Source: a virus
Taxonomy: Duplodnaviria; Caudoviricetes
DNA: 54,827 bases
Reading direction: 5' to 3' (one strand)
Virus record (IMG/VR): IMGVR_UViG_3300032282_002669
Span: 1 to 54,827 of that record
In this document: piece after piece, positions 9,035-53,666 of the stretch
Position numbering within the stretch: the stretch's first letter is position 1
Layout of the letters: each line of letters begins with the position of its first letter
Position numbers and translations under genes: made by a program
Notes under the pieces: model-generated
Told to the model about the DNA's origin: nothing
What the model saw: the letters and a program-made list of their open reading frames with translations, nothing else
Database searches by the model: none

Positions 9035-11029
9035 ATGGCTAATACAGTTTCTTTATTAAATTTAAGTAATACTTTTGAAGATTGGGTTGCTGTAACCAAT
9101 AATCTTTCAAAAGAAAACAATGACCTTGCAGCTAACAATTATGTTAAAACTGCTGGCACATTATACTTAAATGAACCAGGTCTTGGTTTGCAAGTTGCCA
9201 ATGTGGCAGTTATTGCAGGTCAGTTACAAGTTCAAGGTATTGGTTCTTCTGCTTTTATTCAAAACAATCTCCGTGTTGATGGACAAGTATATTTTCAAAA
9301 TACTACATTAGGTTTAACCAACTCTGGTCCTTCAAATTTTAATGGACTAATTTCTGCAACAAGAACAGGCACGGCGTTATACATTGCGAATAATGCACAA
9401 ATTAATGGTTATGCAAATGTAAATAATATTAATGCAAATACCATTACATCATCTGTTATAACAGTAACAACATTAAACAATTCATATGTAAATGCTTCTT
9501 TTTTACATGCAAATGCAGCTTATAGTAAAGCAAACTCCGCTAATGTTTTGGCTCAGGCCGCTTTTGACCATGCTAACGGATCTTATGTTCACGCAAATGC
9601 TGCTTTTGATTTAGCTAATACAAAGTATGCTGCTGGTGGTGGTCAAATTGATGGTACTGTATCAATTACTGGTGGTTTAACTGTTGGTGGTAATTTCACC
9701 ATTAATGGTGTAACAATTACCGATTCAAATACATTTACACTCAGAGCAAACACAGGTACTAATGATGGACAATCATCATTTTTGAGAATCAATAGAGGTT
9801 CTCCTGGTAATCCTGGCGCAAATGCTGAAATTCGTTGGAATGATGCAAATTCTTATTGGGATTTGAGAGATGTTAATAATCCAACAGTATACAACCAGAT
9901 TATTACAACAAAATATGTTTCAAACTCTGTATTGTCAACAAATACATTTAATGTTGCAACATCAGCTTCTGTAAATACAGTTCTTAGATATGCTGAATCA
10001 AACTATAATGCAACCAATGCTGCATTTAGACATGCAAATGCTTCATATGATTATGCAAATACTGTAAATAATTTTTCACACACAACATTTGCATATGCAA
10101 ATACTGTAAACAATGTTACAATGACTTATATTGCATCTGTTGAAAATTATGCAAATACTGGTTATCGTCATGCAAATGCATCATTTAATCACGCAAACGC
10201 AGCTTATGTTACTGCCAATTCAGCACAAGCAAACACTATAATTACACAAGGTGTTGATGCATGGCAGAATACTAGAATTACTGCTGTAGATACCTATGCA
10301 ACATCAGGTTATACACAAGCAAATGCGGCTAATCAATATGCCAATACCGCATATGCTCAAGCAAATGCAACAAATACAATTACATTTTCTGCATATGCTC
10401 ATGCCAATGCAGCCTACACTCATGCTAATGCTTCTTTTGCAGCTGCTAACAATGTATTCCCACAAGTTCAACCTGCTTTTGCACAAGCAAACGCTGGTAC
10501 ATTACTTGCACAAGCAGCCTTTAATAGTGCCAATCTTGCTATTGGTACTAATGCAACACAAAATACAAGACTATCTGCTGTGGAAACATATTCTACCGCT
10601 GGTTATGGTCAAGCAAACGTAGCCACAATTTTAGCACAAGCCGCATTTAATTCTGCAAATAATTCTGCAGCTGCACTTTCCAATGTTCAATTAAGAGCAT
10701 ACAAAGAATATGTAAACACTGCTACCGTTTCAACATCAACATATGCTATTAATTTGGCAGATTCAAACATCTTTAGATTAACTTTAGGTACTTCCACCAC
10801 ATTATCATTTACTGGTGCGCCAGCTTCAGGAAACTTATTTTCAATTACTTTAATATTGACACAAGATGCTACAGGAGGTAGAACTGTAACATTACCAACT
10901 GCTAAATATTCAGATGGTATTGCACCCGCATTATCTGTTGGTGCTAATGCTACCGATATCTTGACGTATTTTACATATGATGGTGGTTCAACATATTTTG
11001 GTGCGTATGCAATGGCTAACGCATTTTAA
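9035..11029 (+). CDS. Fibre protein (fibritin/whisker position) with Ala-Asn coiled-coil shaft
   Basis: N-terminal SNTFEDWVAVTN motif; INRGS...AEIRWND fibre domain; many ANAAF/AQAAF repeats; C-terminal LTQDATGGRTVT...DGGSTYFG domain. Confidence 0.65.
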   Translation: MANTVSLLNLSNTFEDWVAVTNNLSKENNDLAANNYVKTAGTLYLNEPGLGLQVANVAVIAGQLQVQGIGSSAFIQNNLRVDGQVYFQNTTLGLTNSGPSNFNGLISATRTGTALYIANNAQINGYANVNNINANTITSSVITVTTLNNSYVNASFLHANAAYSKANSANVLAQAAFDHANGSYVHANAAFDLANTKYAAGGGQIDGTVSITGGLTVGGNFTINGVTITDSNTFTLRANTGTNDGQSSFLRINRGSPGNPGANAEIRWNDANSYWDLRDVNNPTVYNQIITTKYVSNSVLSTNTFNVATSASVNTVLRYAESNYNATNAAFRHANASYDYANTVNNFSHTTFAYANTVNNVTMTYIASVENYANTGYRHANASFNHANAAYVTANSAQANTIITQGVDAWQNTRITAVDTYATSGYTQANAANQYANTAYAQANATNTITFSAYAHANAAYTHANASFAAANNVFPQVQPAFAQANAGTLLAQAAFNSANLAIGTNATQNTRLSAVETYSTAGYGQANVATILAQAAFNSANNSAAALSNVQLRAYKEYVNTATVSTSTYAINLADSNIFRLTLGTSTTLSFTGAPASGNLFSITLILTQDATGGRTVTLPTAKYSDGIAPALSVGANATDILTYFTYDGGSTYFGAYAMANAF

Positions 11030-11142
11030 TGAAAAAGGTTAAGAGTCTAGGAGCCTACAAATTTAATTTTTCGAGTTCCTGGAGTCCAAAAAGCGAAATT
11101 AGTTTTAAGCTGTTTTTAATTAATTAAAGGAGTAATAAAAAA

Positions 11143-11475
11143 ATGTCTTTTGTCAGAATCGATGATGTCCATTTGTATGGTGGCTTAACAGAAGATGCTG
11201 CTGATTGTTATCGTACTAAAAAATGGTTAAATGACAATAATATTCCATTTGTTCATCTATTTTATCAAGATGATAATCAATGTGCAGAAGTTATTGAAAC
11301 TGTTAATGGTTGGTTTGCTACACCAGAACAATCAACTGTTATTTCAAAAATGCCTTTTGTTGTTTACTGTGAAGTAGATAGTGATTTGCCAATTTCACAA
11401 TATCCAAGAAAAGTATTAGTTGGATACGATGAAATCACTAGCAAATTAAAAGACCTTTACACAGTAGGCAGATAA
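11143..11475 (+). CDS. Glutaredoxin/thioredoxin-fold-like small protein
   Basis: Good SD (AAAGGAG). DCYRTKKWLNDNNIPF and KMPFVV resemble a Grx helix and cis-Pro strand, but there is no CxxC. Confidence 0.45.
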   Translation: MSFVRIDDVHLYGGLTEDAADCYRTKKWLNDNNIPFVHLFYQDDNQCAEVIETVNGWFATPEQSTVISKMPFVVYCEVDSDLPISQYPRKVLVGYDEITSKLKDLYTVGR

Positions 11476-11476
11476 T

Positions 11477-13234
11477 ATGCCTATAGCATTCCGTACACTC
11501 AAACAGGGTGTAGTCAGTTCCGGTTCCAGGACTTTCAATAGTTCTGGAAACTTTCAAATTCCATTAGGTATAACAGAAGTTACAATATCCGGAACTGGTG
11601 CTAAAGGAGCTTCGGGTGCAAGAGGTAACACGGGAAATCCAGGAAATATTGGATCACCTGGAAATGCTGGAAATCCAGGAGTTGCAGGCACTGCTGGGCC
11701 AGCTGGTGCTGCCGGTACTGCGGGAGCTTTAGGTCAATCAGGAACTCCAGGTAATGCCGGGAATGCAGGAACAGCCGGTACCGGTGGTGCTGGTGGAAAT
11801 GGTGGAGCTGGTGGTCCTGGAGGTTCAAGAGGATATACTACACTTACAAATGCATCTTATTCATCTGGAGGCACAGCTGGTCTATATGTTCAACCAAATT
11901 CTGGTCCTGCTGTAGGAGGACCTGCAGCAACGGGTGGTGGTGGATCAGGCGGTGCAGGTGCAATCCACGGCATGATGAATCAAGGTTATGGCGCTACTGC
12001 AATTGGTTCTGTTAGTGGTAATGTTTTATATCCTAAATCTCCTAATATTGCAGCATCAACTTTCTCAGGAAACAATATGAGTGTTCCTGTTATGGGTGGT
12101 TTTGGTGGATCTGGTGGTTCTGCTGGAGGGGCTGGATCTCCTGGAAATGCTGGAACTCCAGGAAACGCAGGAACAGCTGGAACTCCAGGAAGTTATGTTG
12201 TTACTGGCGGTGCTGGCGGTGCAGCACCAACATCATGGTCGGGTCAAAATGCTGTGGCAGGAAATACTGGCACAATAGGCAATTCAGGAACTTCAGGCAA
12301 CTCAGGAAACACAGGTGCAACCGGAACTCCAGGAAACATATCTTATTTTGGTTCAGTTAACACTCAAACATTCAATGGTGGTGCAGGTGGTTTAGGTGGA
12401 GCAGGAAGTCCTGGTGGTGTAGCAGGACCTGGTGGCGCAGCTGGTAATGCTGGTGCCTCAGGAAATCCAGGAAATGTTGGAACTGCTGGTAATCCAGGAA
12501 ATTCTGGAACAAATGGCAACGCAGGAAATGCAGGAGCTGCTGGTGCTGGAAATCCAGGTTCGGCTGGTAATACTGGAGGTGCGGGTGGCGGCGGTGGTGG
12601 CGGTGCTGCAGCTGTATGGTCTGGAACCGATAATTCTACTTTTGTATCTCCTGTAGGAAATAATCCAGGAAACTTTCAAGCAGCTTCAAGTACCATGAGT
12701 GCGGTTACACCTTGGTATAACAATGCTAGATATAATTCTGGTACAGGTAATGCTGGTAATGGCGGATCTGGTTCTGGAAATAATTCAGGTTATGGAACCG
12801 GTGGTTCTTCAGGTACATCAGGCTTTGCGTACTCTCCTTATTTGATTAATGATTATACTGGAATGTCCATAGTGGGTTCAGCCGGAAGTTCTGGAAATCC
12901 AGGCTCAGTAGGCAATACTGGTGCGAATGGAAACTCCTCAGCTGGTGGCGCAGGTAATCCAGGAAATTCAGGCACAACTGGTAATCCAGGAAATGCTGGT
13001 TCTGTTGGCGTTGCTGGTACGGGTGCAACTTCTGGTGGTCCTGGAGGATCTGCACCAGTAACTTGGTCTGGTAAAGATGCAAGTCTTGGAGTTCTTGGGG
13101 CTTCAGGAGATGCTGGAGAAATTAAAACTTATAATGCAGTATCAGTAAATTCTAGAGGAATATATCCTGTTTCTATAGGAACAGGAGCAAATCCAGGATC
13201 AATTACAGTAGCTTGGAATAGAACTATTAAATAA
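11477..13234 (+). CDS. Collagen-like / Gly-X-Y-rich virion protein
   Basis: Long Gly-X-Y tracts (GNTGNPGNIGSPGNAGNPGVAGTAGPAG...) between an N-terminal TFNSSGNFQIPLGITEV segment and a C-terminal GSITVAW segment. Confidence 0.8.
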   Translation: MPIAFRTLKQGVVSSGSRTFNSSGNFQIPLGITEVTISGTGAKGASGARGNTGNPGNIGSPGNAGNPGVAGTAGPAGAAGTAGALGQSGTPGNAGNAGTAGTGGAGGNGGAGGPGGSRGYTTLTNASYSSGGTAGLYVQPNSGPAVGGPAATGGGGSGGAGAIHGMMNQGYGATAIGSVSGNVLYPKSPNIAASTFSGNNMSVPVMGGFGGSGGSAGGAGSPGNAGTPGNAGTAGTPGSYVVTGGAGGAAPTSWSGQNAVAGNTGTIGNSGTSGNSGNTGATGTPGNISYFGSVNTQTFNGGAGGLGGAGSPGGVAGPGGAAGNAGASGNPGNVGTAGNPGNSGTNGNAGNAGAAGAGNPGSAGNTGGAGGGGGGGAAAVWSGTDNSTFVSPVGNNPGNFQAASSTMSAVTPWYNNARYNSGTGNAGNGGSGSGNNSGYGTGGSSGTSGFAYSPYLINDYTGMSIVGSAGSSGNPGSVGNTGANGNSSAGGAGNPGNSGTTGNPGNAGSVGVAGTGATSGGPGGSAPVTWSGKDASLGVLGASGDAGEIKTYNAVSVNSRGIYPVSIGTGANPGSITVAWNRTIK

Positions 13235-13253
13235 TTTTTGAAAGTGAGTTGTT

Positions 13254-13850
13254 ATGTTATATCAAATATCTCCAACACCAACGTTGGGTTTGACTGAACA
13301 TGAATTTGTATCTTGGAATGATGGGTTTACTGAAGAAGAAGTTAATAGAATTATTGATTATGCCGACACTTTAGAAAAACAACACTCTAAAGTAGACAAA
13401 GGAGATTTATCTCCTAAAAAAATTCGAATTAGTGAAATTGCTTGGATGTTTCCAGATAATGATACAAAATGGATATATGATAAGTTATCTTGGATATTGA
13501 GGCAATTAAATGCACAATTCTATAGATTTAATATAACAGGATTTGATGAACCATTACAATACACTATCTATAATGGTAGTGAAGAAGAAGGTGGTCACTA
13601 TACTTGGCATAGAGATACTGGTGGAGATGCGCCAAGAAAGTTATCCATAGTCATGCAGTTGAGTGACCAAAGTGAGTATGAGGGTGGAGATTTAGAAATT
13701 TTGAATGCCAATGGTGGTATATTAAAAGTTGATAAGAAAAAAGGTTTTATTGTAATGTTTCCATCTTATGCAACACATAGAGTTACGCCAGTTACCTCAG
13801 GCATTAGAAGAAGTTTAGTGGTTTGGGCTTCAGGTCCAGCATTTGTATAG
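13254..13850 (+). CDS. 2OG-Fe(II) oxygenase, prolyl 4-hydroxylase/PKHD type
   Basis: HYTWHRD (HxD), RKLS, YEGGDL, FPSYATHRVTPVTSGIRRSLVVW (distal His plus 2OG-binding Arg). Confidence 0.9.
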   Translation: MLYQISPTPTLGLTEHEFVSWNDGFTEEEVNRIIDYADTLEKQHSKVDKGDLSPKKIRISEIAWMFPDNDTKWIYDKLSWILRQLNAQFYRFNITGFDEPLQYTIYNGSEEEGGHYTWHRDTGGDAPRKLSIVMQLSDQSEYEGGDLEILNANGGILKVDKKKGFIVMFPSYATHRVTPVTSGIRRSLVVWASGPAFV

Positions 13851-13884: not shown

Positions 13885-14223
13885 ATGCCAGCAGCCTATT
13901 CCAACCTATACATCGAACAAGGAACATCATTTTCTACTACAGTTACAGTAGATGATGTCTATGGAGATGTCTATGATTTGTCTAATTATACTGCTAGAAG
14001 TCAAATTCGTAAGTCTTATTACTCAGCCAATACTACGGCAGTATTTACTACTTCAGTTAATTCTGGTCAAGGATCAATTACTCTAAGTCTATCAGCAGCG
14101 GTGACGGCAAACATTGCCCCAGGTCGTTATGTATACGATACTACAATCACCGGCATATACAATCGTGAAGTTACAAGAATATTAGAAGGTGTTGTGGAAA
14201 TTTCACCATCAGTCACAAGGTAA
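13885..14223 (+). CDS. Conserved T4-like virion protein (fibre-attachment-type beta domain)
   Basis: NLYIEQGTSF...DLSNYTARSQIRKSY...GRYVYD...TRILEGVVEISPSVTR, a motif set common in large T4-like phages. Confidence 0.7.
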   Translation: MPAAYSNLYIEQGTSFSTTVTVDDVYGDVYDLSNYTARSQIRKSYYSANTTAVFTTSVNSGQGSITLSLSAAVTANIAPGRYVYDTTITGIYNREVTRILEGVVEISPSVTR

Positions 14224-14226
14224 AAA

Positions 14227-14448
14227 ATGACAACTCAGACCATAGGTACAGTAAGAGTTCAAGTAGGTACAACAGGTAATCCAAAAGTTAGATCAATTAA
14301 CTATGGAACAACTTCATTAAAAGGCGCTTCTGATGTAGACATTAGAGGCGCAGAGGACGGAGAAGTATTGGTTTACAGAGCTGCAACAGATTCATTTGTA
14401 GTTGCGCCAGTCACAGCTGTTGCTGGTCTAGATGCGGGAACATTTTAA
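14227..14448 (+). CDS. Small virion protein ending in DAGTF
   Basis: 73 aa; SLKGASDVD...DGEVLVY fibre-like motif; coupled to neighbours. Confidence 0.65.
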   Translation: MTTQTIGTVRVQVGTTGNPKVRSINYGTTSLKGASDVDIRGAEDGEVLVYRAATDSFVVAPVTAVAGLDAGTF

Positions 14449-14685
14449 GTGGCAAATACTTCAATACAAATACTAAGGTCGTATGCAAATACGAAACCAA
14501 CAACACTAAATGATGGTGAAATGGCCTATTCTTTTTTGGCCAACACACTTTATATTGGTGACCAAACTGGTCAAGTTATTCGTATTGGTGCATTAACCAC
14601 AACAGAAAATGCAGCAAACACAGTAGTTTTAAGAGATTCAAGTGGTAATATAAATGTTGCCACCGTAGACGGTGGAAATTTCTAA
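14449..14685 (+). CDS. Small fibre-connector protein (GELA-type N-terminal domain)
   Basis: GTG start directly after the TAA. IQILRS...PTTLNDGEMAYS is paralogous to the 14733 and 17064 N-termini; ends in DGGNF. Confidence 0.65.
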   Translation: MANTSIQILRSYANTKPTTLNDGEMAYSFLANTLYIGDQTGQVIRIGALTTTENAANTVVLRDSSGNINVATVDGGNF

Positions 14686-14732: not shown

Positions 14733-16415
14733 ATGGCAAATACAAATATTTTAATTAAGCGCTCGTCAAGCACACGCCAGCCTAGTTCGCTAGCTGCCGG
14801 TGAATTAGCGTATTCATACCAATCAAATACATTATTCTTAGGTAATGCGGCTGGTAATGGTGTCATCAACGTTGGTGGTGTATATTATACTCAATCAATT
14901 GACAATGCAACTTCTGCTGCTACTCCAGGCACAATCGTTAGACGAGATGCTTCGGGTAACGCAACTTTCCAAAACATTACTGTTAATGGATTCATTTCTG
15001 GTACAATTGACGGTGTTGCAAACGCTGCCGTCTATCTAAGAGATTCACAAAACTTTAGTGTTTCTGGTGGTGACATCTCTGCTACGGCCGTATCATTTAA
15101 CGGTACAGGTCCTGTTACTTTAAATGCATCACTTAACAGTATTGCTGGTTTAAGTGCTGGTACATACGGATCTTCTACTGCAATTCCAGTTTTAAATATT
15201 GCTGCAAATGGTCGTATCACTGGTGTTTCAACTCAATCTATCTCTACTCAATTTACTTTAACCGGCGACACCGGCAATACAACCATTTCTGGTGGTGATA
15301 CACTCGCTGTTGTTGGTGGTGCTGGTATAACAAGTGTTGTTTCTGGTGACCAAGTAACTCTTGATGTAGACAATACTGTTGTTCGTTCTAATACAGCAAT
15401 TACAAGTCAAACTATTGATGGTTCTTTAACTATTGCTGGTAACTTAACAGTCCAAGGCACACAAACAACAGTTAACACATATACATTAAACGTTGCCGAT
15501 CCATTAATTATTTTAGCGGCAAATAATGCTAGTGATGCTATTGATATTGGTTTTGCTGGTCACTATAATGATGGTGCTACCGATAGACATACTGGTTTCT
15601 TCCGTGACGCTGGTACAAAAGAATACTATGTATTTGATGGATATACTCCTGAGTTATATTCTAATAATAGTATTGATGTTGCAGCTGCAAGTTTCCACAA
15701 AGCAAACTTGAATGCTGGATATGCTAAAGTAGATGGTATTTTCTCAAATGGTATCAATTTAGATACTCGTATTCAAAACATCTATAATTCTGCCAATACA
15801 AATGCTTCTGATATTACAATCATTCAAGGTGTTAATACAACACAGAATACTCGTATTACTGCTGTAGATAGTTTTGCTCAAGGCGCTTACAACAAGGCAA
15901 ACAATTCAGTACAAGCTTCAAGCAATCTTACTTTTGGCCAATTGGTTGTTGCTGATGGTAATACATCATTAAAGAGCCTTGCTAATAGTTCTTATACATT
16001 AACAGGTACACTTGGTGCTAGCAAAACAATTACATCATTTACTGTTGATGCATATGGTCGTGTAACTGCTGCAACTGCTGGTAACATTGCAATTAGTTCT
16101 TCTGCTGTTTCTGGTTTGGCTGCTGTTGCTACCTCCGGCAACTATAGTGATTTAAGTGGTGCACCAAGTTTAGCATCGATAGCTACTTCAGGTTCCGGTT
16201 CAGATATTACCACAGGTACTGTTGCAGTATCTTACGGTGGTACTGGTCGAAATACATTTACCACTAATGGTTTGGTATTTGGTAATTCTACTGATGGTTT
16301 ATTGGTTACTGCTTCTGCAGGTACTTCAGACCAGACATTCAGTAATCAAATTCTTACTGTTACCAACGCTGGTGTGCCAGTATGGTCAAGTGCTCTTGAC
16401 GGAGGCACATTCTAA
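14733..16415 (+). CDS. Tail fibre protein
   Basis: N-terminal ILIKRSS...PSSLAAGELAYS resembles T4 long-tail-fibre subunit N-termini. Contains the DIGFAGHYNDG...KEYYVFDGYTPE domain and TVDAYGRVTAA; ends in DGGTF. SD TAAGGA. Confidence 0.75.
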   Translation: MANTNILIKRSSSTRQPSSLAAGELAYSYQSNTLFLGNAAGNGVINVGGVYYTQSIDNATSAATPGTIVRRDASGNATFQNITVNGFISGTIDGVANAAVYLRDSQNFSVSGGDISATAVSFNGTGPVTLNASLNSIAGLSAGTYGSSTAIPVLNIAANGRITGVSTQSISTQFTLTGDTGNTTISGGDTLAVVGGAGITSVVSGDQVTLDVDNTVVRSNTAITSQTIDGSLTIAGNLTVQGTQTTVNTYTLNVADPLIILAANNASDAIDIGFAGHYNDGATDRHTGFFRDAGTKEYYVFDGYTPELYSNNSIDVAAASFHKANLNAGYAKVDGIFSNGINLDTRIQNIYNSANTNASDITIIQGVNTTQNTRITAVDSFAQGAYNKANNSVQASSNLTFGQLVVADGNTSLKSLANSSYTLTGTLGASKTITSFTVDAYGRVTAATAGNIAISSSAVSGLAAVATSGNYSDLSGAPSLASIATSGSGSDITTGTVAVSYGGTGRNTFTTNGLVFGNSTDGLLVTASAGTSDQTFSNQILTVTNAGVPVWSSALDGGTF

Positions 16416-16452: not shown

Positions 16453-17058
16453 ATGGGTAATGAAAAGTTTGTTAATTATTATATTGAGGGGTTGATTTCT
16501 ACACTAAATGATTGTTTGATAAGAAACATTTCATTACAAGCGACTGATAGAATTAGTAAAGAAATAATTGAGAGTCATTCTAAAAAGATTGAAAGTTTAA
16601 ATGGTTCTATTGATGCTCTACAAGTTGACTTAGAAAATTCTAAGAAACAACAATCTGATTCTGATAATCAACGTTATCAGAATTTAGAGAACAGCATCAA
16701 AGACCATTTAAACACAATCGCTAAATTGAATGGTGAAGTTTCTCAATTAAATACAATGAAAAATGAATATGAAAATGTTAAACATCAGGTACAACATGTA
16801 GACACTTTCAGAACCGAGTTAAACAAAACTCGGGAAGAATTAAACAATGTTCGTAACGAATATGAAAAAAAGATTATTGACTTAAACAGTTCATATGAGT
16901 TGCAGATTAAAGAACTAAATGAAAAAATTGACTATTTACAATTAACTCCTGCCAGAAGAAAAAAAATTGAGGAAGTGAAAAAGGAAACTACCGACACACC
17001 AACTATTGATGTGTTTAGTAGTTCAGAAGAAATTCTCAAAGACGGCGGAAGTTTCTAA
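16453..17058 (+). CDS. Coiled-coil hypothetical protein ending in DGGSF
   Basis: 201 aa, E/K/N/L-rich heptads; SD AGGGAG. Confidence 0.7.
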   Translation: MGNEKFVNYYIEGLISTLNDCLIRNISLQATDRISKEIIESHSKKIESLNGSIDALQVDLENSKKQQSDSDNQRYQNLENSIKDHLNTIAKLNGEVSQLNTMKNEYENVKHQVQHVDTFRTELNKTREELNNVRNEYEKKIIDLNSSYELQIKELNEKIDYLQLTPARRKKIEEVKKETTDTPTIDVFSSSEEILKDGGSF

Positions 17059-17063: not shown

Positions 17064-17555
17064 ATGGCAAATACAACAGTACGGTTAAAAAAATCAGGTG
17101 TAACAGGTAATGTACCAGACTCACTAGTTTATGGTGAGCTGGCGATTAACTACGCTGATGGTAAACTGTTTTATCGTCATGCAAACAATACTGTTGCTAG
17201 TATTTCTACTGGCTCAACAACAGATTCGTTTGCAACCATCAATGCTAATTCTTCTTTAATATTAGCATCTTCTCCACAAGATACTCTGTCTATTATTCCT
17301 GGTAATAATATTACCATATCGACAGATACATTCAATAAAACAATCACAATTAATTCTACTGCCTCAGGTGGTGGAAATTCTGTTGATGATTATGCTAGAG
17401 ATAAAGCAAACTCGGCTAATGTTCTTGCACAAGCCGCATTTGATAAAGCAAATACTGGAGTAGGCACTTATACAATTACTGGCGCTCAATATGTTGATTA
17501 TGGTTGGGTACCTCAAACACCAGGTCCAATATTATTCGATTATGGAACGCTATAA
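17064..17555 (+). CDS. Short fibre/connector protein
   Basis: VRLKKSG...PDSLVYGELAINYADGKLFY N-terminus; AQAAFDKAN module; ends in DYGTL. Confidence 0.7.
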   Translation: MANTTVRLKKSGVTGNVPDSLVYGELAINYADGKLFYRHANNTVASISTGSTTDSFATINANSSLILASSPQDTLSIIPGNNITISTDTFNKTITINSTASGGGNSVDDYARDKANSANVLAQAAFDKANTGVGTYTITGAQYVDYGWVPQTPGPILFDYGTL

Positions 17556-40565: not shown

Positions 40566-40577
40566 TAGGAGATAGTA

Positions 40578-40997: not shown

Positions 40998-41024
40998 TTT
41001 TGTTTTTCATTATGAAAGTTTGAT

Positions 41025-44114: not shown

Positions 44115-44971
44115 AAAAGATTTTAATCATGGGTTTACCTGGTGCCGGAAAAACATTCTTGGCCGAAGCTCTCAAAAAATATTTAGAAGATAATGGTGAT
44201 ATTGAAAAGGTTAATCCATCCAGAATCTTAATGAAAGAAGCCCTCTATATTGACGAGGACGAATTTAAAATTAAAGTGAATTGGTTTAATGCCGATGAAG
44301 TTCGTAAAAAATATAATGATTGGGACTTTAGTGATACTGGTCGTATTCGTCAATCATTAAGAATGGCACAATTTGCTTTAGAATCTAATGGTGATTTTGT
44401 TATCTGTGATTTTGTGGCACCATTGGTAGAAATGCGTAACAACTTTAAAGCTGACTGGACTATTTGGGTTGACACAATTAAAGAAGGTCGTTATTCAGAT
44501 ACTAACAAAGCTTTCATTGAACCTGAAGTATATGATTTCCGTGTTACAGAACAAAATGCGGTCAAATGGGCTAAGTTTATTGGCGACCACATTTTAGAAA
44601 ATCGTAGACGTCCTAGATTCGATTGGCAAAAAGAAACCACTCAAATGTTGGGTAGATGGCAGCCATGGCATGATGGCCATCGTGCATTGTTTGAAAGAGC
44701 TTTGGCAAAAACAGGTCAAGTAATTATTCAAATTCGTGATTGCCAAGGATGGCAAGGTTCTAATCCTTTTGCCATCGAACAAGTCAAAAAATATATTCGT
44801 AGAGATTTAGATCCTTTGTTTCAAGGCCAATATGAGATCCAAGTGGTACCAAACATTGTAAACATTACTTATGGTCGTGATGTGGGTTATAAAATTGAAC
44901 AAGAAACCTTTGATGATAAAACTCATGCAATCTCCGCTACAAAGATTCGTAAAGAATTAGGCATTAAATAA
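44111..44971 (+). CDS. Adenylylsulfate (APS) kinase-like P-loop domain fused to HxGH nucleotidyltransferase
   Basis: GLPGAGKT; NADEVR...DFS..GR; CDFVAP; then MLGRWQPWHDGH and ISATKIR. Confidence 0.75.
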   Translation: MKKILIMGLPGAGKTFLAEALKKYLEDNGDIEKVNPSRILMKEALYIDEDEFKIKVNWFNADEVRKKYNDWDFSDTGRIRQSLRMAQFALESNGDFVICDFVAPLVEMRNNFKADWTIWVDTIKEGRYSDTNKAFIEPEVYDFRVTEQNAVKWAKFIGDHILENRRRPRFDWQKETTQMLGRWQPWHDGHRALFERALAKTGQVIIQIRDCQGWQGSNPFAIEQVKKYIRRDLDPLFQGQYEIQVVPNIVNITYGRDVGYKIEQETFDDKTHAISATKIRKELGIK

Positions 44972-45017: not shown

Positions 45018-45650
45018 ATGGCTATCCAACAACTTCCATTAAATGGTCAAACAAAAATAATTAACGGCGTTAGTTATGTGTATACTGCCGCCAATAATAG
45101 TTGGACAGTAGGAACCACCGTTCCACCATCCACAGATATTGTTTATTCTGATAGTCTTTATATTAGTAGTAACAATGGTATTACCTTTTCAGATGGCACC
45201 AAACAAACCACGGCTACAGCTTTGGATGTTTGGCTTAGAGGTTATGCAAATGCATCTTTTAGTAAAGCCAATTCCGCAAACATATTGGCTCAAGCGGCAT
45301 ATACGCAAGCTAACACAGGAACTACATTAGCACAAGCAGCATTTAATGTGGCCAACAATGTTAGTGGTGGTACTGCACAAGATGGATTTGCCAGAATTGT
45401 GGCCAATACGGCTTCGGCCAATACCATTTATACACAAGGTGTTGATACTACACAAAACACTAGAATAACTATTATTGAAGGTATTAACACCACACAGAAT
45501 ACCAATATAACAATTATTCAAGGTGTAGATAATACACAAAATACAAATATCACTATTGCCAATAATGCAGCTCAAGCTGCTTTTGCACAAGCCAACAATA
45601 GTGCGACAACAGGAAAAGCTATTGCTATGGCAATGGTATTTGGAGGATAA
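45018..45650 (+). CDS. Short fibre protein ending in TTGKAIAMAMVFGG
   Basis: NGVSYVY...W N-terminus; ITFSDGTKQTTA; QNT heptad repeats. Confidence 0.7.
   Translation: MAIQQLPLNGQTKIINGVSYVYTAANNSWTVGTTVPPSTDIVYSDSLYISSNNGITFSDGTKQTTATALDVWLRGYANASFSKANSANILAQAAYTQANTGTTLAQAAFNVANNVSGGTAQDGFARIVANTASANTIYTQGVDTTQNTRITIIEGINTTQNTNITIIQGVDNTQNTNITIANNAAQAAFAQANNSATTGKAIAMAMVFGG
45351..45446 (+). repeat. 96-bp dispersed repeat shared with 50671-50766
   Basis: 93 of 96 positions identical by manual alignment (ANNVSGGTAQDGFARIVANTAxANTIYTQGVD). Confidence 0.85.
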
Positions 45651-45653: not shown

Positions 45654-46028
45654 ATGGCAGCACCAAACATTGTAGCCGTAACATCAATTAATGGAAAATC
45701 GGCACTTTCTAGGCCAGCAAATACAAACACTTTTAGCATATTAACCAATACTGCAAGTTCTGGTCGTGTATACAAAATTAATACTATTGTATGTTCAAAC
45801 CATAACGGCACATTAACTACAGCTGCCAATGTTTATATAAATGATTCTGCAAACGGAGCAGGTAATAATATTGCATTAATTTATAATGTTTCAATACCTG
45901 CAACAGTTTCATTAATTGTTGTTGATAAATCCACATCATTTTATTTGGAAGAAAATAAATCTATAACAGTTTCTTCCGCAACCTCCAATGCAATATCTTT
46001 TACCGTAAGTTATGAAGATATTAGTTAA
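45654..46028 (+). CDS. Small beta-rich virion adaptor (MAAPNIV family)
   Basis: MAAPNIVAVTSINGK...VYKINTI...VDKSTSFYLEE...SYEDIS; SD GGAGG. Confidence 0.7.
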   Translation: MAAPNIVAVTSINGKSALSRPANTNTFSILTNTASSGRVYKINTIVCSNHNGTLTTAANVYINDSANGAGNNIALIYNVSIPATVSLIVVDKSTSFYLEENKSITVSSATSNAISFTVSYEDIS

Positions 46029-46030: not shown

Positions 46031-47410
46031 ATGAGTAATAGAAATTTTGGTGGTTTTATTACCACCGGTACCGTTTCAGCCAATTCTACATACGCTTCTG
46101 GTGTTTGGTCACTTTCTCAATATCTATATCAAAAATCCAATGGTTCGTGGCCAGGATCTCAATATTATTCTTTGTTTTCTGGTAATGCAACTTCTGTTAA
46201 TGAAAGTTCAAACACCACCTTTTATGCAAACACCATTAATATACCCAATAATACAACTGCATATTGGACAATAGAACACATTACAACCAGTGCAAATGAT
46301 TTTGTTGAAACTTCCAATTCTTTTGTAATTAGTAATAATACAGGTTCATTTATTGTTCGTACTGTTGGTGATTTAACAACCGAAGGATCTGAAAGCTTTC
46401 AGATAGCCATTAGGCAAGACAGTAATGTTGGCCAAATTTTAGCAACCAGTTCAATAATTACTTTAAATGATACTTCATTATCTCCATTACCAAGTATTAG
46501 TTTCTTACTTGTTGGTGCTGGCGGAAATTCATTTGGAAATTCTAATGGTAATTATTCTGGAGGCGCAGGTGGTGCAGGAGCATTTGAGGCCACAGGATTT
46601 ACAGGTTATGTTACAAGTAATACCTACACCGTTCAGATAGCTGCAGCTGGTGGCAGTTCTACTGTACTTTCTGGTACCTTTGATATATTAGGTAATACTG
46701 ACATGTATGGTACTGGTGGTGGTTATGGTGCATACAAGACTAATGCCGGAACAACTTTTGCCGGTTATAATGGTGGAGGAGGTGCAGTTTGGCCTACTTA
46801 CAACGGCAGTCGTTGGAACATGGATAGTAGTAGACAAGCTGGCGGATCAAGTGGCCAAAGTAGTGTTCAAAGTACATATAGTAGTCAATATCCTGGTGTA
46901 TTTAAAAATTATGGTGGTAATGGAGTAAATGGCCAATATTATAGTATTGAAGGATCATCAAATCTTGGTTCTTGGGCATGGGCTCATGGTGGAGGAGGAG
47001 GAGCTAGTGGCGTTGCTGCCAATACAACAGTAAATCTTGGCACAATCATTGCATATGTTGATGGTGGACCCGGCATGTCCAGCAATATTTCAGGAACACT
47101 ATCTTATTATGGTGGTGGCGGCGGTGGATATGGATATGGAGCCACCGGTGGTATTGAAAAATTTGGTGTTGGTGGATTAGGTGGAGGTGCCAATACGGCT
47201 GTTTATAATAGCACCCAAAACAATGGAGCTCCCAATACTGGAGGAGGATCAGCCGGCAGCGGACTTGGCGGAAGTGGAGTTGCTTATTTTAGATTTCCAG
47301 ATTCTCAGATATCTGCAAATACAACGGGTGGAGCAACTTCATATCTTTCTGGCACAGATTGTGTCGTTTATTTTTATTCATCCGGAACCATAAGGTTTTC
47401 TAGAAAATAA
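46031..47410 (+). CDS. Glycine-rich tail adhesin-like protein with Calx-beta/Ig-like domain
   Basis: GGFI...ASGVWSL N-terminus; SVNE...GDLTTEGSESF domain; FLLVGAGG...YYGGGGGG...NTGGG...GGSGVAYFR glycine-rich domain. Confidence 0.7.
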   Translation: MSNRNFGGFITTGTVSANSTYASGVWSLSQYLYQKSNGSWPGSQYYSLFSGNATSVNESSNTTFYANTINIPNNTTAYWTIEHITTSANDFVETSNSFVISNNTGSFIVRTVGDLTTEGSESFQIAIRQDSNVGQILATSSIITLNDTSLSPLPSISFLLVGAGGNSFGNSNGNYSGGAGGAGAFEATGFTGYVTSNTYTVQIAAAGGSSTVLSGTFDILGNTDMYGTGGGYGAYKTNAGTTFAGYNGGGGAVWPTYNGSRWNMDSSRQAGGSSGQSSVQSTYSSQYPGVFKNYGGNGVNGQYYSIEGSSNLGSWAWAHGGGGGASGVAANTTVNLGTIIAYVDGGPGMSSNISGTLSYYGGGGGGYGYGATGGIEKFGVGGLGGGANTAVYNSTQNNGAPNTGGGSAGSGLGGSGVAYFRFPDSQISANTTGGATSYLSGTDCVVYFYSSGTIRFSRK

Positions 47411-49112: not shown

Positions 49113-50098
49113 TGTCCAATATAGCATACAATAGAGTTATTAGAAAATTAGTTATTGGTTTTGGTAACTTATTTAAAAATATAACTCTTGTTCGTTACAA
49201 TCCAGATTTATCGGAAGCACAAAGATTTCTTGTGCCTTTGGTCTATGCCACAAAAGAATACTATGTTCGTAGATTGGAAGACGATCCAAATTTGGATAAA
49301 AAAGTTCAAACAACTTTACCAAGAATGTCTTTTGAAATGTCTGGTTTAAATTACGACACAACTCGCAAACAAAACACCAATGTAAAATCTTTTGCAAAAA
49401 CAAGTACAGGAACAATTGCACAATACAATCCAGTTCCTTATAACTTTGATTTTAATCTTTACATCTATGTAAGAAATATTGAAGATGGCACACAAATTAT
49501 TGAACATATTCTTCCATTTTTTACACCAGATTATACAGTTAAATTAAATTTAATTCCTGAAATGGGTATAGTAAAAGAAGTGCCTGTTATTTTAAATTCT
49601 AGTTCACATGAAATTGAATATGAAGGCAATAAAGAAACCGAAACTAGAATGGTTATTTGGACACTAAACTTTACGGTTAAAGGTTTTATTTTTGGAAAAA
49701 CATCTGCAACCAGTTTAATTAAAAACTCAATTACAAACATTCTTGGTAATATTACAACAAATGATTTGGTTCAATTTGAAATGTCTAATAGTGGTATTGG
49801 AACATATCAAGAAGGTGAAATTGTCTATCAAGGATATTCAGCCAGCAATTCTCAAGCAACAGGCAAAGTGGTTTATTGGAATAACAATACATTACACCTT
49901 ACAAACATTAATGGTAATTTTGTATCTGATGTTCCTATTATTGGTGTTGTTTCAAATTCAAATTATACTTTTGTAAATTATCAAGTGTTACCACAAGCTT
50001 TAGCTAGTATTGATATTAAACCAAATCCACTTTCAGCTAATGCGACAAATAATTATACATATACTACCACAATAACAGAATTTCCGGATACACTATAA
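49112..50098 (+). CDS. gp15: Tail terminator / sheath stabiliser (T4 gp15-like) with C-terminal extension
   Basis: IRKLVIGFGNLF; VPLVY; LPRMSFEM; PVPYNFDF; QIIEHILPFFTP; IWTLNFTVKG. Confidence 0.92.
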   Translation: MSNIAYNRVIRKLVIGFGNLFKNITLVRYNPDLSEAQRFLVPLVYATKEYYVRRLEDDPNLDKKVQTTLPRMSFEMSGLNYDTTRKQNTNVKSFAKTSTGTIAQYNPVPYNFDFNLYIYVRNIEDGTQIIEHILPFFTPDYTVKLNLIPEMGIVKEVPVILNSSSHEIEYEGNKETETRMVIWTLNFTVKGFIFGKTSATSLIKNSITNILGNITTNDLVQFEMSNSGIGTYQEGEIVYQGYSASNSQATGKVVYWNNNTLHLTNINGNFVSDVPIIGVVSNSNYTFVNYQVLPQALASIDIKPNPLSANATNNYTYTTTITEFPDTL

Positions 50099-51399
50099 TG
50101 TCTAAAATAACTATTAATATTGGTGCAACACCTAATGACGGAACAGGTGATCCATTAAGAACCGCATTTAATTCCGTTAATCAAAATTTTACAGAGTTGT
50201 ATAATTCTGTTGCAACACTTCAACCCATTGATGCAGACTTAACAGCTATTGGTGCATTGTCCGGTACTAGTGGTTTCTTAAAGAAAGTTGGAACAAACAC
50301 ATGGTCACTTGATACCAATACATATACTGATAATACAGGTACAGTTACAAGTGTTTCAGGAACAGGTACAGTTAGTGGTTTAACATTAACAGGATCAGTT
50401 ACAGGATCAGGCAGTTTAACATTGGGTGGAACACTAACATTAACAGATACGAGTATCACATCTGCTCTTGGATATACACCTTACAATTCTTCCAATCCAA
50501 ACGGATATATTACTAGTGCAAATTTAACTAGCGTGTCTGGTATAGATTCTTATGCTAGAACAACGGCTAATACCGCAACAAACAATGTTACCATTATTCA
50601 AGGTGTGGATGTTTGGCAAAATACTCAAATTACTTCCGCAAGAACTTTGGCTCAAGCTGCGTTTGATACTGCCAACAATGTTAGTGGTGGTACTGCACAA
50701 GATGGCTTTGCTAGAATTGTGGCCAATACGGCTGCGGCCAATACCATTTATACACAAGGTGTTGATGTAGGACAAAATACTCGCATGAGTATTATTGAAG
50801 GTGTTGATTCTGGCCAGAACACTAGAATGTCTATTATTGAAGGTGTAGATGTTACACAAAATAATAGAATATCTACATTAGAAACTGTTAATGGTGAACA
50901 AAACACAGCAATTAATATTATTCAAAATGTAAACACTACTCAAAATACCCGCATGAGTATTGTTGAAGGTGTTGATTTAACTCAGAACACCAACATTACC
51001 AGTGCATTGTCCAATATAACATATTTGCAAGGTGCATTAAATACAGCAAATACAAATATTGTGGCAGCAGCACAAACTATTCCACAAAATGCACAAACAT
51101 CAAACTATACATTACAGTTAACAGATGCAGGTAAACATATTTACTATACACAAGCATCCAATACAACATTGTATATTCCTAATGCTGGTCAAGTGTCTTT
51201 TAGTAATGGTACAACCATTATGATTGTTTCAAAAACAACATCAAGTGCAAACGTAACCGTATCACCAAGTACGGGCGTAACAATGTATCTTGCTGGTAAT
51301 ACAACAAGCGCTTCACGAAATGTTACAACATATGGTATGGCAACATTAATTCAAGTTGCGGCAAACACTTGGTTTATTAATGGTACAGGAGTAATATAA
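50098..51399 (+). CDS. Fibre protein with T4 gp9/gp10-type N-terminal anchor
   Basis: INIGATPNDGTGDPLRTAFNSVNQNFTELY; GTVTSVSG; ALGYTPY; QNT repeats; C-terminal YTLQLTDAGKHI...ANTWFING domain. Confidence 0.72.
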   Translation: MSKITINIGATPNDGTGDPLRTAFNSVNQNFTELYNSVATLQPIDADLTAIGALSGTSGFLKKVGTNTWSLDTNTYTDNTGTVTSVSGTGTVSGLTLTGSVTGSGSLTLGGTLTLTDTSITSALGYTPYNSSNPNGYITSANLTSVSGIDSYARTTANTATNNVTIIQGVDVWQNTQITSARTLAQAAFDTANNVSGGTAQDGFARIVANTAAANTIYTQGVDVGQNTRMSIIEGVDSGQNTRMSIIEGVDVTQNNRISTLETVNGEQNTAINIIQNVNTTQNTRMSIVEGVDLTQNTNITSALSNITYLQGALNTANTNIVAAAQTIPQNAQTSNYTLQLTDAGKHIYYTQASNTTLYIPNAGQVSFSNGTTIMIVSKTTSSANVTVSPSTGVTMYLAGNTTSASRNVTTYGMATLIQVAANTWFINGTGVI

Positions 51400-53666
51400 T
51401 GAGTGCCATTATGGCCATGGTGGCTAATGTTGTTAAAAAAGCCACACAATCAACTTCATCTCTTAATTATTTTTCTTTATGGACATGGGGAGGAAATTAT
51501 CACGGACAATTAGGATTAAATGATACCGATTATAGGTCCAGTCCAACACAAGTGGGTGCTGGCACTATCTGGTTAACTATGGCTAGTGGATATTATCATA
51601 CTATTGCAGCTAAATCTGATGGAACATTGTGGGCTTGGGGCAACAGTAACTGTGGCCAATTAGGATTAAATGATTCAATTAATAGATCCAGTCCAGCACA
51701 AATTGGTACTGAATTATGGAACATTAAAAGTGTTGATGTTGGGTTAAGACACACAGCTATTGTTAAAGGTGATGGTACACTATGGACTTGGGGCCTTGAC
51801 AGTATAGGCCAATTAGGATTAAATGATTCAATTAATAGATCCAGTCCAGTTCAAGTTGGTTCGTTAACTAATTGGAAATATTGTGCAGCAATGTCATTTA
51901 GTACTGTAGCAACAAAAACAGACGGCACTTTGTGGGGATGGGGATTTAATAATGCTGGTCAATTAGGAACAAACGACATAGTTTATCAATCTAGTCCGGT
52001 TCAAATAGGCACAGATACAAATTGGGATGTTCCAAAATGTTCTGTATATGGAGGTCTCACAGCTGTTAACAAAACTGATGGAACATTATGGGCTTTTGGC
52101 CAAGATAATTATGGAATATTAATTAATGCTTATTCAACCAATACTTCCAGTCCAATACAAATTGCTTCAGCCAATATTTGGTCTTCGGTTTCAATTGGAG
52201 CTCAATCGGCATTTTTTATTAAACCTAACAATACTTTATGGGCATCCGGTTTAAATGGTCAAGGTCAATTAGGACAAAATAATAGAGTGGGTGTTAATAG
52301 TCCAGTACAAATAGGTGCAGATACAAATTGGTCTACAAATATTACATCATCATCAACCATTCCAGTTGCAATCAAAACCGATGGCACTATATGGACTTGG
52401 GCAGGTGGTTTTATGGGAACAGGTTTAAATGATACCAGTTATAGATCCAGTCCAGTTCAAATTGGTACTGATACAACTTGGTCTAAAGTTTATGGAAAAG
52501 CTGCATCAGTTTTTGCACTTCAATCGAGTACAAACAATCCTACACTTCCTGAAGTAACACCTAGCGCAAGTTTTGATTTGTATACTTGGGGTTATAATTC
52601 TAACGGAGAATTAGCATTAAATGATACAATAGATAGATCAAGTCCAACTCAGGTTGGTGCAGGTAGATGGAGTCAAGTATCTGAAAAAACCGGCGTTAAA
52701 ACAGATGGCACTTTATGGGTGTGGGGAATTAATAATGATGGTCAATTAGGCCAAAATAATACTATTTCTAAATCTAGTCCTACACAAGTTGGTGCATTAA
52801 CCAATTGGTTAAAATCTCAAACAGGATATAATAGCATTTTTGCACTTAAAACAGATGGCACATTATGGGCTTGGGGTAGAAACAATTATCAAAATTTTAC
52901 AGGTTTTGCTCAAGGACATTTAGGATTAAATGATGCGGTCAGTAGATCCAGTCCAGTTCAAATTGGTACAGACAACTATTGGAGCAATTTTTCAACTCGA
53001 AGATCGGTTGCAGGTGTGTTAGCAACCAAAACCGATGGCACACTATGGGCTTGGGGAGATAATGGTCAAGGGCAATTAGGATTAAATATTTCAGGATTCA
53101 TTGCTGGTCAAGGTAATATATATAGATCTAGCCCAGTTCAAGTTGGTACGGATACAAATTGGTCAAAAATTGAAAAAGCAGTAAACAATTCATTTGCAAT
53201 CAGAACCGATGGCACATTATGGACATGGGGTCTTGCAGGCCCACAATCAGGATTAAACAGTCCGGCAATAGGAAATAAATCAAGTCCTGTACAAATTGGC
53301 ACAGACAACAATTGGAGTAGTTTGGCTTCACAAAATTATTCAGTTGCAGCCATTAAAACCGATGGTACCTTATGGACATGGGGTGAAAATCGATATGGCC
53401 AACTTGCTCATCCATCTCCCGTTGGAGAAATAAGTGCAAATATATCCAGTCCTACACAAGTTGGTGCCGGAACAAATTGGTTGAGGGTGGCATTTGGATA
53501 TACTTGTTTACTAGCCACTAAAAGAGATGGAACCTTGTGGAGTTGCGGTCGAAATCAGAACGGCCAATTAGGAACAAACGACACAGTTGATCGATCTAGT
53601 CCGGTTCAAATAGGCACAGCAAGTACTTGGAATACAACTTTTGGAACAGCAAAATTTAATAATTAA
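51399..53666 (+). CDS. Tandem double RCC1/BLIP-II-like beta-propeller protein
   Basis: Two sets of about 7 KTDGTLWxWG blades joined by NNPTLPEVTPS; 43-bp exact repeat (51654-51696 and 51807-51849). Confidence 0.85.
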   Translation: MSAIMAMVANVVKKATQSTSSLNYFSLWTWGGNYHGQLGLNDTDYRSSPTQVGAGTIWLTMASGYYHTIAAKSDGTLWAWGNSNCGQLGLNDSINRSSPAQIGTELWNIKSVDVGLRHTAIVKGDGTLWTWGLDSIGQLGLNDSINRSSPVQVGSLTNWKYCAAMSFSTVATKTDGTLWGWGFNNAGQLGTNDIVYQSSPVQIGTDTNWDVPKCSVYGGLTAVNKTDGTLWAFGQDNYGILINAYSTNTSSPIQIASANIWSSVSIGAQSAFFIKPNNTLWASGLNGQGQLGQNNRVGVNSPVQIGADTNWSTNITSSSTIPVAIKTDGTIWTWAGGFMGTGLNDTSYRSSPVQIGTDTTWSKVYGKAASVFALQSSTNNPTLPEVTPSASFDLYTWGYNSNGELALNDTIDRSSPTQVGAGRWSQVSEKTGVKTDGTLWVWGINNDGQLGQNNTISKSSPTQVGALTNWLKSQTGYNSIFALKTDGTLWAWGRNNYQNFTGFAQGHLGLNDAVSRSSPVQIGTDNYWSNFSTRRSVAGVLATKTDGTLWAWGDNGQGQLGLNISGFIAGQGNIYRSSPVQVGTDTNWSKIEKAVNNSFAIRTDGTLWTWGLAGPQSGLNSPAIGNKSSPVQIGTDNNWSSLASQNYSVAAIKTDGTLWTWGENRYGQLAHPSPVGEISANISSPTQVGAGTNWLRVAFGYTCLLATKRDGTLWSCGRNQNGQLGTNDTVDRSSPVQIGTASTWNTTFGTAKFNN

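Follow-up and report, generated by a model that had tools for sequence, protein, structure and literature searches.

Can the build of a phage's adsorption apparatus be read from the order of its fibre genes? The question is raised by the IMG/VR virus record IMGVR_UViG_3300032282_002669, whose entire 54,827 bases, estimated at about one third of the genome, form the window analysed here, with open reading frames (ORFs) numbered g01 to g42 and all long ORFs on the + strand. Profile searches identify the window as a fragment of a marine T4-like myovirus running from gp8 to gp13-17, with a DNA similarity of 65-69% to T4-like cyanophages and pelagiphages. Positions 9035-53666 form a variable block extending from the baseplate wedge to the neck genes, together with two genes inserted between gp15 and gp16, and the gp8-to-gp16 interval harbours 10 fibre genes that are paralogs of one another, 8 genes for RCC1 propellers and a number of small genes (Table 1). 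A preliminary description of this block proposed that about ten fibre and eight RCC1 genes reuse a small set of terminal motifs, that each C-terminal motif is followed in gene order by one N-terminal motif, and that gene order thereby spells the assembly grammar of a branched device tipped with exchangeable propellers. We find it fairly probable that the block encodes several serial fibres, collinear with gene order, whose separately encoded and exchangeable heads are joined non-covalently at a few conserved junction types. Three junctions (a split domain, a hydrophobic tail and DGGxF ends) hold up in related phages, unlike two other adjacencies of the preliminary description, NNWVDI then MxFPxSP and S74 then MAIKIN; two of the junction types are conserved well past close relatives.

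The gene counts of that description were borne out by shaft similarity and by Pfam. The 10 fibre-like genes (g04, g09, g11, g12, g14, g17, g19, g21, g33 and g39) have a common shaft sequence that includes a 42-nt (14-residue) repeat, while RCC1 repeats, of Pfam families PF00415 (RCC1) and PF25390 (RCC1-like domain), occur in 8 of the 41 window proteins scanned with Pfam (g15, g18, g20, g22-g25 and g40), with 51 blade matches in total, 47 of them over the cut-off. The terminal motifs do exist among the 42 proteins checked, but each is present in only one to three copies and one of the stated pairs is wrong. DGGxF ends are found in 2 copies, with 2 more on small ORFs (73 and 78 aa), NNWVDI/GDxW in 3 copies, one of them N-terminal (g18), and MxFPxSP in 3 copies; the remaining motifs are present once each, the 'FTGNG repeats' being three loose repeats in g21. 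This reuse is far over chance because the genes are paralogs, as exemplified by the match of the g14 C-terminus to the g18 N-terminus (E 2e-17); paralog identities amount to 45% for g15/g20, 64% for g18/g20, 47% for g19/g21 and 46-54% among g22-g25. Recent gene conversion among these paralogs was considered and rejected, since long near-identical DNA repeats were not found and the repeat families consist of RCC1 blades and 42-nt shaft repeats at 60-80% identity. Because each motif is rare in the window, the 'grammar' is not statistically testable there, and relatives were consequently examined in three samples: 76 loci fetched with g19, 70 loci fetched with the YWK domain described below, and the best 80 loci of at least 365 IMG/VR relatives fetched with the g13 family (loci are designated L below). 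The order g08-g14 is kept in the close relatives L002-L007 and L021.

The NNWVDI fibre end had been paired with the MxFPxSP start. In fact, an RCC1 gene starts exactly 9 nt past g14 (g15) and likewise past g19 (g20), and the repeating unit is a two-gene cassette, fibre then head. These heads begin with a 'YWK' domain that looks like a Calx-beta-type sandwich; PF03160 is present on some of its database relatives. In g18, both parts are found in a single chain: residues 6-110 match the C-terminus of g19 (BLAST E 2e-17) and that of g14, while residues 112-580 match the whole of g20 by BLAST, and in the alignments the end of g19 plus the start of g20 equals g18, colinear to the residue. Compared to the fused gene, the split pairs contain, directly ahead of the ATG, a 12-nt insert in which TAA and a Shine-Dalgarno-like AAGGA site are found. 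Read-through of the stop codons at split junctions was rejected as an explanation: the stops are all TAA, the AAGGA and ATG are conserved, and the spacer between g21 and g22 has a second in-frame stop; the genes are therefore read as separate and translationally coupled.

The position of the split relative to the fold was examined in an AlphaFold2 model of g18, with a mean predicted local distance difference test (pLDDT) value of 79. Confident folding of a beta domain sets in near residue 101 (block pLDDT 87), with a strand at 103-107. Since the split point falls at about residue 110, the first strand of this domain is encoded by the fibre gene in the split pairs, and we suggest that the last strand of the fibre completes the first domain of the head. 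Residues 1-100 have a pLDDT below 50, as expected if the NNWVDI module folds only as an oligomer. No solved relative was found by sequence for the NNWVDI module, and only chance-level rows (E 0.2-0.65) for the YWK domain. A common origin of the MxFPxSP and NNWVDI modules as one domain family was also considered and set aside, the profile-profile comparison giving a probability of 4.7% and an E of 0.008 over 15 columns, by which homology is not shown.

This junction is conserved in relatives. In close relatives of the first sample, a YWK-first gene lies 9 nt past C-terminal NNWVDI in all 9 instances (6 distinct); the rule is broken by one further distinct protein with an NNWVDI-like end, of 101 aa and found in L068-L072. 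Conversely, YWK starts a protein in 10 loci (7 distinct) of the second sample, and an NNWVDI end lies 9 nt upstream in 10/10; in the remaining 60 loci YWK is internal to larger proteins, after an NNWVDI motif in two of them. Two subtypes could be distinguished for each of NNWVDI and YWK, and these are matched in 8/8 cases. In L003, the subtypes sit on opposite stalks relative to the window, the N-terminal part of the fibre being exchanged, and the junction unit has therefore moved whole between stalks. Such movement as a unit is evidence for matched pairing that is suggestive and not decisive, as linkage alone could yield the same.

Prediction of cognate and non-cognate complexes, proposed as a check in the preliminary description, gave a weakly favourable result for a single cognate pair. 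A prediction combining the last 130 residues of g19 with the first 115 residues of g20, at three copies per partner and with a 10-row alignment for each, scored 0.38 (runs 0.38, 0.42 and 0.38) versus 0.00 for the best of 3 controls, a weak pass, with contact agreement of at least 49% and a partner pLDDT of at least 65 across the runs. In calibration, 58 of 80 solved complexes attained the mark, as did 2 of 110 mismatched pairs, whereas scores at or below 0.60 accounted for only 7 of the 80 solved complexes and for both passing mismatches. We count the g19/g20 score as mild support because the fusion had made this pair likely beforehand.

The same observations bear on a simpler explanation, in which motif reuse reflects only paralogy and fibre folding, the motifs being inherited trimerisation or registration elements and the RCC1 proteins being free-standing, located elsewhere on the virion or non-structural. 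The fibres are indeed all paralogs, as are the RCC1 genes, the junction DNA is identical across the split pairs as fits one ancestral event, and linkage alone yields co-variation of adjacent modules, next to which the g19/g20 complex score is weak. We nevertheless regard this explanation as unlikely: the split falls inside a confidently folded domain of g18 and not in a linker, and the junction unit stays intact while both the upstream stalk and the downstream head are exchanged. Two further junctions, described below, also speak against it.

As to the MxFPxSP start, the motif search of the window and relatives places an NNWVDI-ending protein directly upstream of 0/15 distinct fibres with this start, the upstream gene coding for a head protein in 6, for a g16-like protein in 6 and for another protein in 3. 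This result matters for the view of all fibres as parts of a single branched tree with several arms, whose C-terminal sockets hold N-terminal plugs, NNWVDI holding MxFPxSP, with propellers at the tips. An MxFPxSP-type N-terminal module is common to four fibres (g17, g19, g21 and g33), which would need four equivalent sites or would compete for one; adaptor-like short proteins exist in distant relatives (L067, 110 aa); and, by looser BLAST labels, a fibre with an NNWVDI-like module adjoins an MxFPxSP fibre in L030 and, from the upstream side, in L025. Still, the NNWVDI end has a better-supported partner in the YWK head, and neither a gp10-like nor any other known branching domain was detected by Pfam or PHROGs on any fibre, although a diverged gp10-like docking domain could escape such searches. 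The only hit pointing in this direction is weak, g11 matching phrog_677, 'baseplate wedge tail fiber protein connector', with E 3e-5. The tree thus found no support in our data, no docking or branching domain being recognised and the pair it rested on not being an adjacency, and we consider it quite improbable. The shared MxFPxSP start and the four heads behind g21 keep a branched or mosaic arrangement alive at low probability. In a wider version, at least four non-covalent junction types and up to eight propeller heads would constitute a combinatorial kit, g22-g25 competing for one stalk and MxFPxSP adaptor fibres docking on others to give branched or mosaic virions; this is rather unlikely.

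The second junction links fibres with a hydrophobic tail (..YILALES in g12, KAIAMAMVFGG in g33) to a small protein. The preliminary description had proposed such an adaptor, and its presence turned out to be general in relatives, g13 and g34 belonging to one family (phrog_1276). A hydrophobic tail lies upstream of 13/14 distinct g13-family members in the first sample. In the third sample, 74 of the 80 loci have an upstream ORF, representing 57 distinct C-termini, and 54 of these 57 show the hydrophobic-tail pattern, compared with 11 of 1605 ORFs in the first sample taken as background. This enrichment from 0.7% to 95% before g13-like genes, over at least 57 distinct contexts, argues against paralogy as the only cause of motif reuse. 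The gene after a g13-like gene usually begins within 1-2 bases of its stop, and the hydrophobic-tail fibre and g13-like pair is found twice in the cultured cyanophage S-SRM01.

The AlphaFold2 model of g13 is an eight-strand jelly-roll (pLDDT 85). Its fold matches are generic (nucleoplasmin-like cores, Ena pilus subunits, virus turret and cement proteins, TNF/C1q heads; Foldseek best E 1.9e-3, VIA Z up to 10.1), and its function is therefore not readable from the fold. By sequence, no solved relative was found for g35, and only chance-level rows for g13. By analogy with gp35, the small hinge protein in the long fibre of T4, we read the g13-like protein as a putative connector between two fibre pieces, with a chaperone role as the main alternative. 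In L067, positions 10001-10333 encode a 110-aa protein with nothing but an MxFPxSP start, NNWVDI-like module and hydrophobic tail, followed by a g34-like gene and then by a gene for a 1537-aa protein; the 110-aa protein looks like a pure adaptor stub.

The alternative just named can be extended: g13, g34, g16 and g08, possibly along with some of the RCC1 proteins, could be chaperones of fibre assembly, or factors modifying the host surface or the fibres. In phages, a fibre chaperone gene is often located directly downstream of the fibre gene. Moreover, g08 matches an 'L-shaped tail fiber protein assembly' family, and sulfotransferase, glycosyltransferase, methyltransferase and 2OG-Fe(II) oxygenase genes lie within the fibre region. 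Nonetheless, the g13 jelly-roll resembles capsid cement, turret and TNF/C1q-type heads, no chaperone appears among the matches listed, and g18 joins fibre sequence covalently to a propeller. RCC1 proteins were in addition found in virions of other phages (PMC11370258, PMC5259590). Taken together, we judge such roles very improbable. The start of g27 (40578-40997) appears similar to that of g16.

The third junction concerns DGGxF ends. Two ORFs of 73 and 78 aa, below the 80-aa cut-off used for ORFs, lie between g08 and g09, and four consecutive proteins therefore end in a DGGxF-type motif. Four proteins have a start resembling Mtd_N, the N-terminal domain of the major tropism determinant, with that of g12 as a variant: g09, g11 and the 78-aa ORF share a MANT..GE[LM]A start that has no Pfam match, the Mtd_N match being restricted to g12. 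The proposed succession of DGGxF by GELA stands for g10 followed by g11, and for 3/4 window cases once the extra ORFs are included, but fails for g09 followed by g10. In relatives, DGGxF-ending g09-like fibres are followed by a g10-like gene in 12/12 distinct cases with a next gene, and DGGxF-ending g10-like genes by a MA..NT..GELA fibre 3-5 nt further on in 11/11 distinct cases. Seven full-length relatives of the 78-aa ORF (74-87% identity) all have an [VI]DGGNF end. Almost the whole of this 78-aa protein consists of the terminal motifs, which fits poorly with motifs that are mere by-products of paralogy. The DGGxF ends may serve docking or merely trimer folding; in g09 and the 73-aa ORF, the C-terminal part may resemble small hairpin-type trimerisation motifs, as would suit the explanation by paralogy.

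The remaining pairs fared unevenly. The succession of TWFING by MSAIMAM has one case in the window, with the start of g40 overlapping the stop of g39 by 1 nt, and is repeated in L060, where the same end type and the same 1-base overlap precede a similar leader on a glycine-rich protein; this makes only 1 of 2 informative relatives, as L044 has a g39-like fibre followed by gp16 and L061 ends at the fibre. Similar end and leader pairs are visible in L101 and L128. The FTGNG repeats then MxxxIxxxNI-IPT pair (g21, g22) is a single window case kept in 2 close relatives. Lastly, S74 followed by MAIKIN (g17, g18) is one case that did not recur, the S74 fibre preceding 0/2 fused-type relatives.

The exchangeability of heads, claimed from the window, was confirmed by conserved adaptors carrying swapped RCC1, glycine-rich and other domains in relatives. 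The model of the g18 propeller covers residues 213-580 with seven blades (pLDDT mostly 84-94), and its Foldseek matches include UVR8, the RCC1-like domains of HERC1/2 and RCC1 (E 1e-26 to 1e-22, TM-score by target 0.75-0.87); the 49 matches listed comprise cellular RCC1-type domains and no phage chain. Alignments of heads break just past ..DTSxxP and continue into RCC1 blades in some proteins and into a glycine-rich domain in others. In the place of g15, for example, RCC1 is found in L005 and glycine-rich heads in L003 and L004. Searching with residues 1-215 of g18, the adaptor, yielded 202 database proteins at E <= 1e-5; among the 120 listed, 22 have RCC1 (query included) and 29 Gly_rich_2, while others carry Ig_3, AGS_C, Calx-beta, He_PIG, BNR or DUF285. 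RCC1 is therefore one of several head types on one adaptor. No solved relative was found by sequence for the glycine-rich head P0014. The ORF at 38383-38745 probably represents what is left of a fifth paralog in the tandem array, or else arose by a frameshift.

Fibre and RCC1 gene pairs are also present in the cultured Synechococcus phage S-SRM01, the genome paper of which mentions RCC1 proteins 0 times, and our search of the literature on RCC1 with phages or fibres found no paper presenting RCC1 proteins as fibre tips, the name 'RCC1' mostly turning up as a culture-collection number. RCC1 proteins of phrog_4219, a family also matched by g20 and g22, were detected by mass spectrometry in W70 virions (PMC11370258), and an RCC1-like protein in GAP32 virions, 121Q and PBECO4 having multi-copy arrays (PMC5259590).

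Based on these junctions, we propose that each fibre is built from a stalk, in some cases followed by a small connector, and beyond it a distal stalk or separately encoded head. At the first joint (J1), the last beta-strand of the NNWVDI fibre would complete the Calx-beta-like sandwich of the head, thereby placing three heads on each trimeric fibre; the head gene begins with its ATG 9 nt on, past the stop and a Shine-Dalgarno site. At the second (J2), the hydrophobic-tail fibre would be joined to the next protein through the 110-aa jelly-roll, in the manner of the T4 hinge or connector gp35. The third (J3) would join a ..W[FY]INGxGV. end to an MS.IMAM-type leader, and the fourth (J4) DGGxF ends to MANT..GELA (Mtd_N-like) N-termini, if these ends dock at all. 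The heads would be interchangeable binding modules, here eight RCC1 seven-bladed propellers that we expect to reside in the virion and to bind receptors, and in relatives glycine-rich, Ig-type or other domains at the same adaptor. Duplication and recombination of fibre and head cassettes would have produced the repeated motifs. The notion of gene order as an assembly grammar is accordingly retained in part: terminal modules across gene boundaries behave as matched pairs, while the pattern itself is explained by cassette duplication.

Several points weigh against this proposal. The whole picture is computational and is known here from the genes of an uncultured phage alone. Neither the four heads behind one fibre (g22-g25) nor g18 has an identified attachment partner, and the g39 and g40 pair is absent in AG-345-P14, where neither gene is at the site, and in L044. 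The NNWVDI module is modelled poorly, and the strand at 103-107 is assigned to the sandwich by confidence values and DSSP only. By calibration, a weak pass in complex prediction is more often wrong than right unless the guess is already likely. Plain genetic linkage and common ancestry would also be expected to keep neighbouring modules adjacent and co-varying, and the identical 9-nt junctions suggest one old split and not many independent events. The g13-like proteins, finally, could be assembly chaperones absent from virions.

Table 1. Features of the window on which the analysis draws
Feature	Position	Strand	Description	Matches and remarks
g02	1096-2463	+	T4-type gp8	Profile search
g04	9035-11029	+	Fibre, 664 aa, tail-fibre C-terminal domain	phrog_9017/7760 E 7e-15; shaft similar to g14, g17, g19, g21
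g08	13885-14223	+	112 aa	phrog_1084, phrog_3304 'L-shaped tail fiber protein assembly'; in relatives, g08-like genes follow fibres with an S74 end (12 loci)
73-aa ORF	14227-14448	+	End ..LDAGTF	In 8 distinct relatives with LDAG[TE]F or IDNGYF end
78-aa ORF	14449-14685	+	GTG start; little beyond MANT..GEMA start and ..VDGGNF end	
g09	14733-16415	+	Fibre, 560 aa; MANT..GELA N-terminus, DGGTF C-terminus	
g10	16453-17058	+	Coiled-coil-like, 201 aa, DGGSF end	
g11	17064-17555	+	Short fibre, 163 aa, MANT..GELA N-terminus	
g12	17582-19645	+	Fibre, 687 aa; Mtd_N N-terminus, hydrophobic tail ..PYILALES	Pfam Mtd_N E 8e-15, residues 9-45; phrog_17885 E 5e-65
g13	19650-19988	+	112 aa, candidate connector (or chaperone)	phrog_1276 E 3e-13
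g14	19997-21982	+	Fibre, 661 aa; ends in NNWVDI module and last beta-strand	
g15	21992-23386	+	Head; N-terminal Calx-beta-like sandwich ('YWK') and RCC1 propeller; 9 nt past g14	
g16	23429-23791	+	120 aa	phrog_7759
g17	23818-25347	+	Fibre, 509 aa; MxFPxSP N-terminus, C-terminal S74 intramolecular chaperone	Pfam Peptidase_S74 E 3e-16, residues 424-475
g18	25381-27123	+	Fused form; NNWVDI module, YWK sandwich and RCC1 seven-bladed propeller in one chain	
g19	27138-28364	+	Fibre, 408 aa; MxFPxSP N-terminus, NNWVDI C-terminal module	
g20	28374-29786	+	Head; YWK sandwich and RCC1 propeller; 9 nt past g19	
g21	29813-31282	+	Fibre, 489 aa; MxFPxSP N-terminus, three DUF4183-like C-terminal repeats	
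g22-g25	31292-38450	+	Four tandem heads, 565-600 aa; N-terminal segment, TIG and He_PIG Ig domains, RCC1 propeller	Pfam
ORF	38383-38745	+	Out of frame, overlapping g25 end	One more RCC1 blade at 38587-38730
g33	45018-45650	+	Short fibre, 210 aa; MxFPxSP-like N-terminus, hydrophobic tail ..AMAMVFGG	
g34	45654-46028	+	Second g13-family member, 3 nt past g33	phrog_1276 E 2e-5
g35	46031-47410	+	459 aa, after g34, related to g06; candidate distal protein of g33/g34 fibre	
g36, g37		+	Neck proteins gp13, gp14	Profile searches
g38		+	Tail sheath stabiliser gp15	Profile searches
g39	50098-51399	+	Fibre, 433 aa, between gp15 and gp16; end ..NTWFINGTGVI	
g40	51399-53666	+	755 aa, short leader MSAIMAM; long enough for two propellers	RCC1-like domain E 9e-110, 9 RCC1 stretches
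g41, g42		+	Terminase subunits gp16, gp17	Profile searches

Other genes surround the fibre cassettes. Located between gp8 and the first fibre gene, g03 (2473-8817) encodes a 2114-aa DUF4815 protein (phrog_358) and is a candidate platform for fibre attachment. The trio g05-g07 (11143-13850) is kept in L005-L007; its member g06, of 585 aa, has long collagen-like Gly-X-Y runs (Pfam Collagen; 9-nt repeats) and adjoins g07, a 2OG-Fe(II) oxygenase of the prolyl-hydroxylase type that may hydroxylate the phage's own collagen-like protein. Genes g26-g32 (38790-44971) code for a sulfotransferase, glycosyltransferases of families 25 and 2, a methyltransferase, a UDP-galactopyranose mutase and a kinase-like protein. 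RCC1 genes also lie beside sulfotransferase and glycosyltransferase genes in S-SRM01 and AG-345-E08.

Little is understood of how marine T4-like phages recognise their hosts, and most of their fibre genes carry the annotation 'hypothetical'. Should the junction rules hold, the architecture of fibres would become readable from gene order in uncultured phage genomes, the host-specificity module would be identified, and natural break points for head exchange would be defined, which would be useful for studying host-range evolution in ocean phage populations. The rules would also suggest a role for the RCC1 proteins found unexplained in virions of other large phages. Were the combinatorial kit real, they would predict fibre architecture in thousands of uncultured T4-like phages.

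Comparison with known adsorption devices places the proposed serial fibres closest to familiar stalk and adhesin systems. In T2, T6 and S16-type phages, the gp37 stalk is combined with the gp38 adhesin, whose gene is directly downstream, and an N-terminal part is conserved for attachment while the distal part is variable. The window resembles this arrangement in having heads directly behind stalk genes (9-nt junctions, with 7/7 distinct YWK-first genes following an NNWVDI fibre), as well as a conserved attachment part and a variable distal part, such that a head swap would change host range. In contrast to gp37/gp38, the joint proposed here consists of a beta-sandwich divided behind its first strand, the heads belong to RCC1 or glycine-rich types, and there are several cassettes per genome, with a fused paralog beside the split ones; no Pfam match to the GP38 or gp37 families was found on the 41 window proteins at E <= 0.01.

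The long tail fibre of T4 (gp34-gp35-gp36-gp37) is assembled serially, and its gene order follows assembly order. Likewise, fibre pieces in the window lie in the proposed joining order, and a small non-fibrous protein stands between two stalks (g12-g13-g14). On the other hand, homology to gp34-37 is not shown, the 'long tail fiber distal subunit' PHROG matches of g17 lying mostly in its S74 chaperone part; the genes are found between gp8 and gp13; and the connector is a 110-aa jelly-roll. CBA120 and G7C have branched tailspike complexes with many receptor-binding proteins. The window is similar in that one phage has many, here predicted, receptor-binding proteins and N-terminal modules common to paralogs, whereas gp10-like docking (by Pfam and PHROGs), depolymerase domains and evidence of branch points were not detected.

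Concerning the heads, the W70_237-239 proteins, GAP_001 of GAP32 and the 121Q and PBECO4 arrays share phrog_4219 and the presence of several paralogs per genome with the window (PMC11370258, PMC5259590). Those reports assign them no role or attachment, while the RCC1 proteins of the window have defined adaptors, lie behind fibre genes and, in one case, are fused to a fibre end. Propellers are known from other receptor-binding proteins, namely phi11 Gp45 (five blades), PRD1 P2 and phiKZ gp131C (seven blades) (PMC4901313). The same paper describes three propellers in the phi11 trimer, to which the peripheral propellers proposed here in the adsorption apparatus would be comparable; these known propellers, however, are of other families, and that of phi11 lies within the chain of the receptor-binding protein (PMC4901313), whereas here it is a separate protein. 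The stalk-plus-adhesin principle is thus the known part of the arrangement, and what is most interesting here is the triad of hydrophobic tail, jelly-roll and next protein, together with the joint that would be formed by a split domain.

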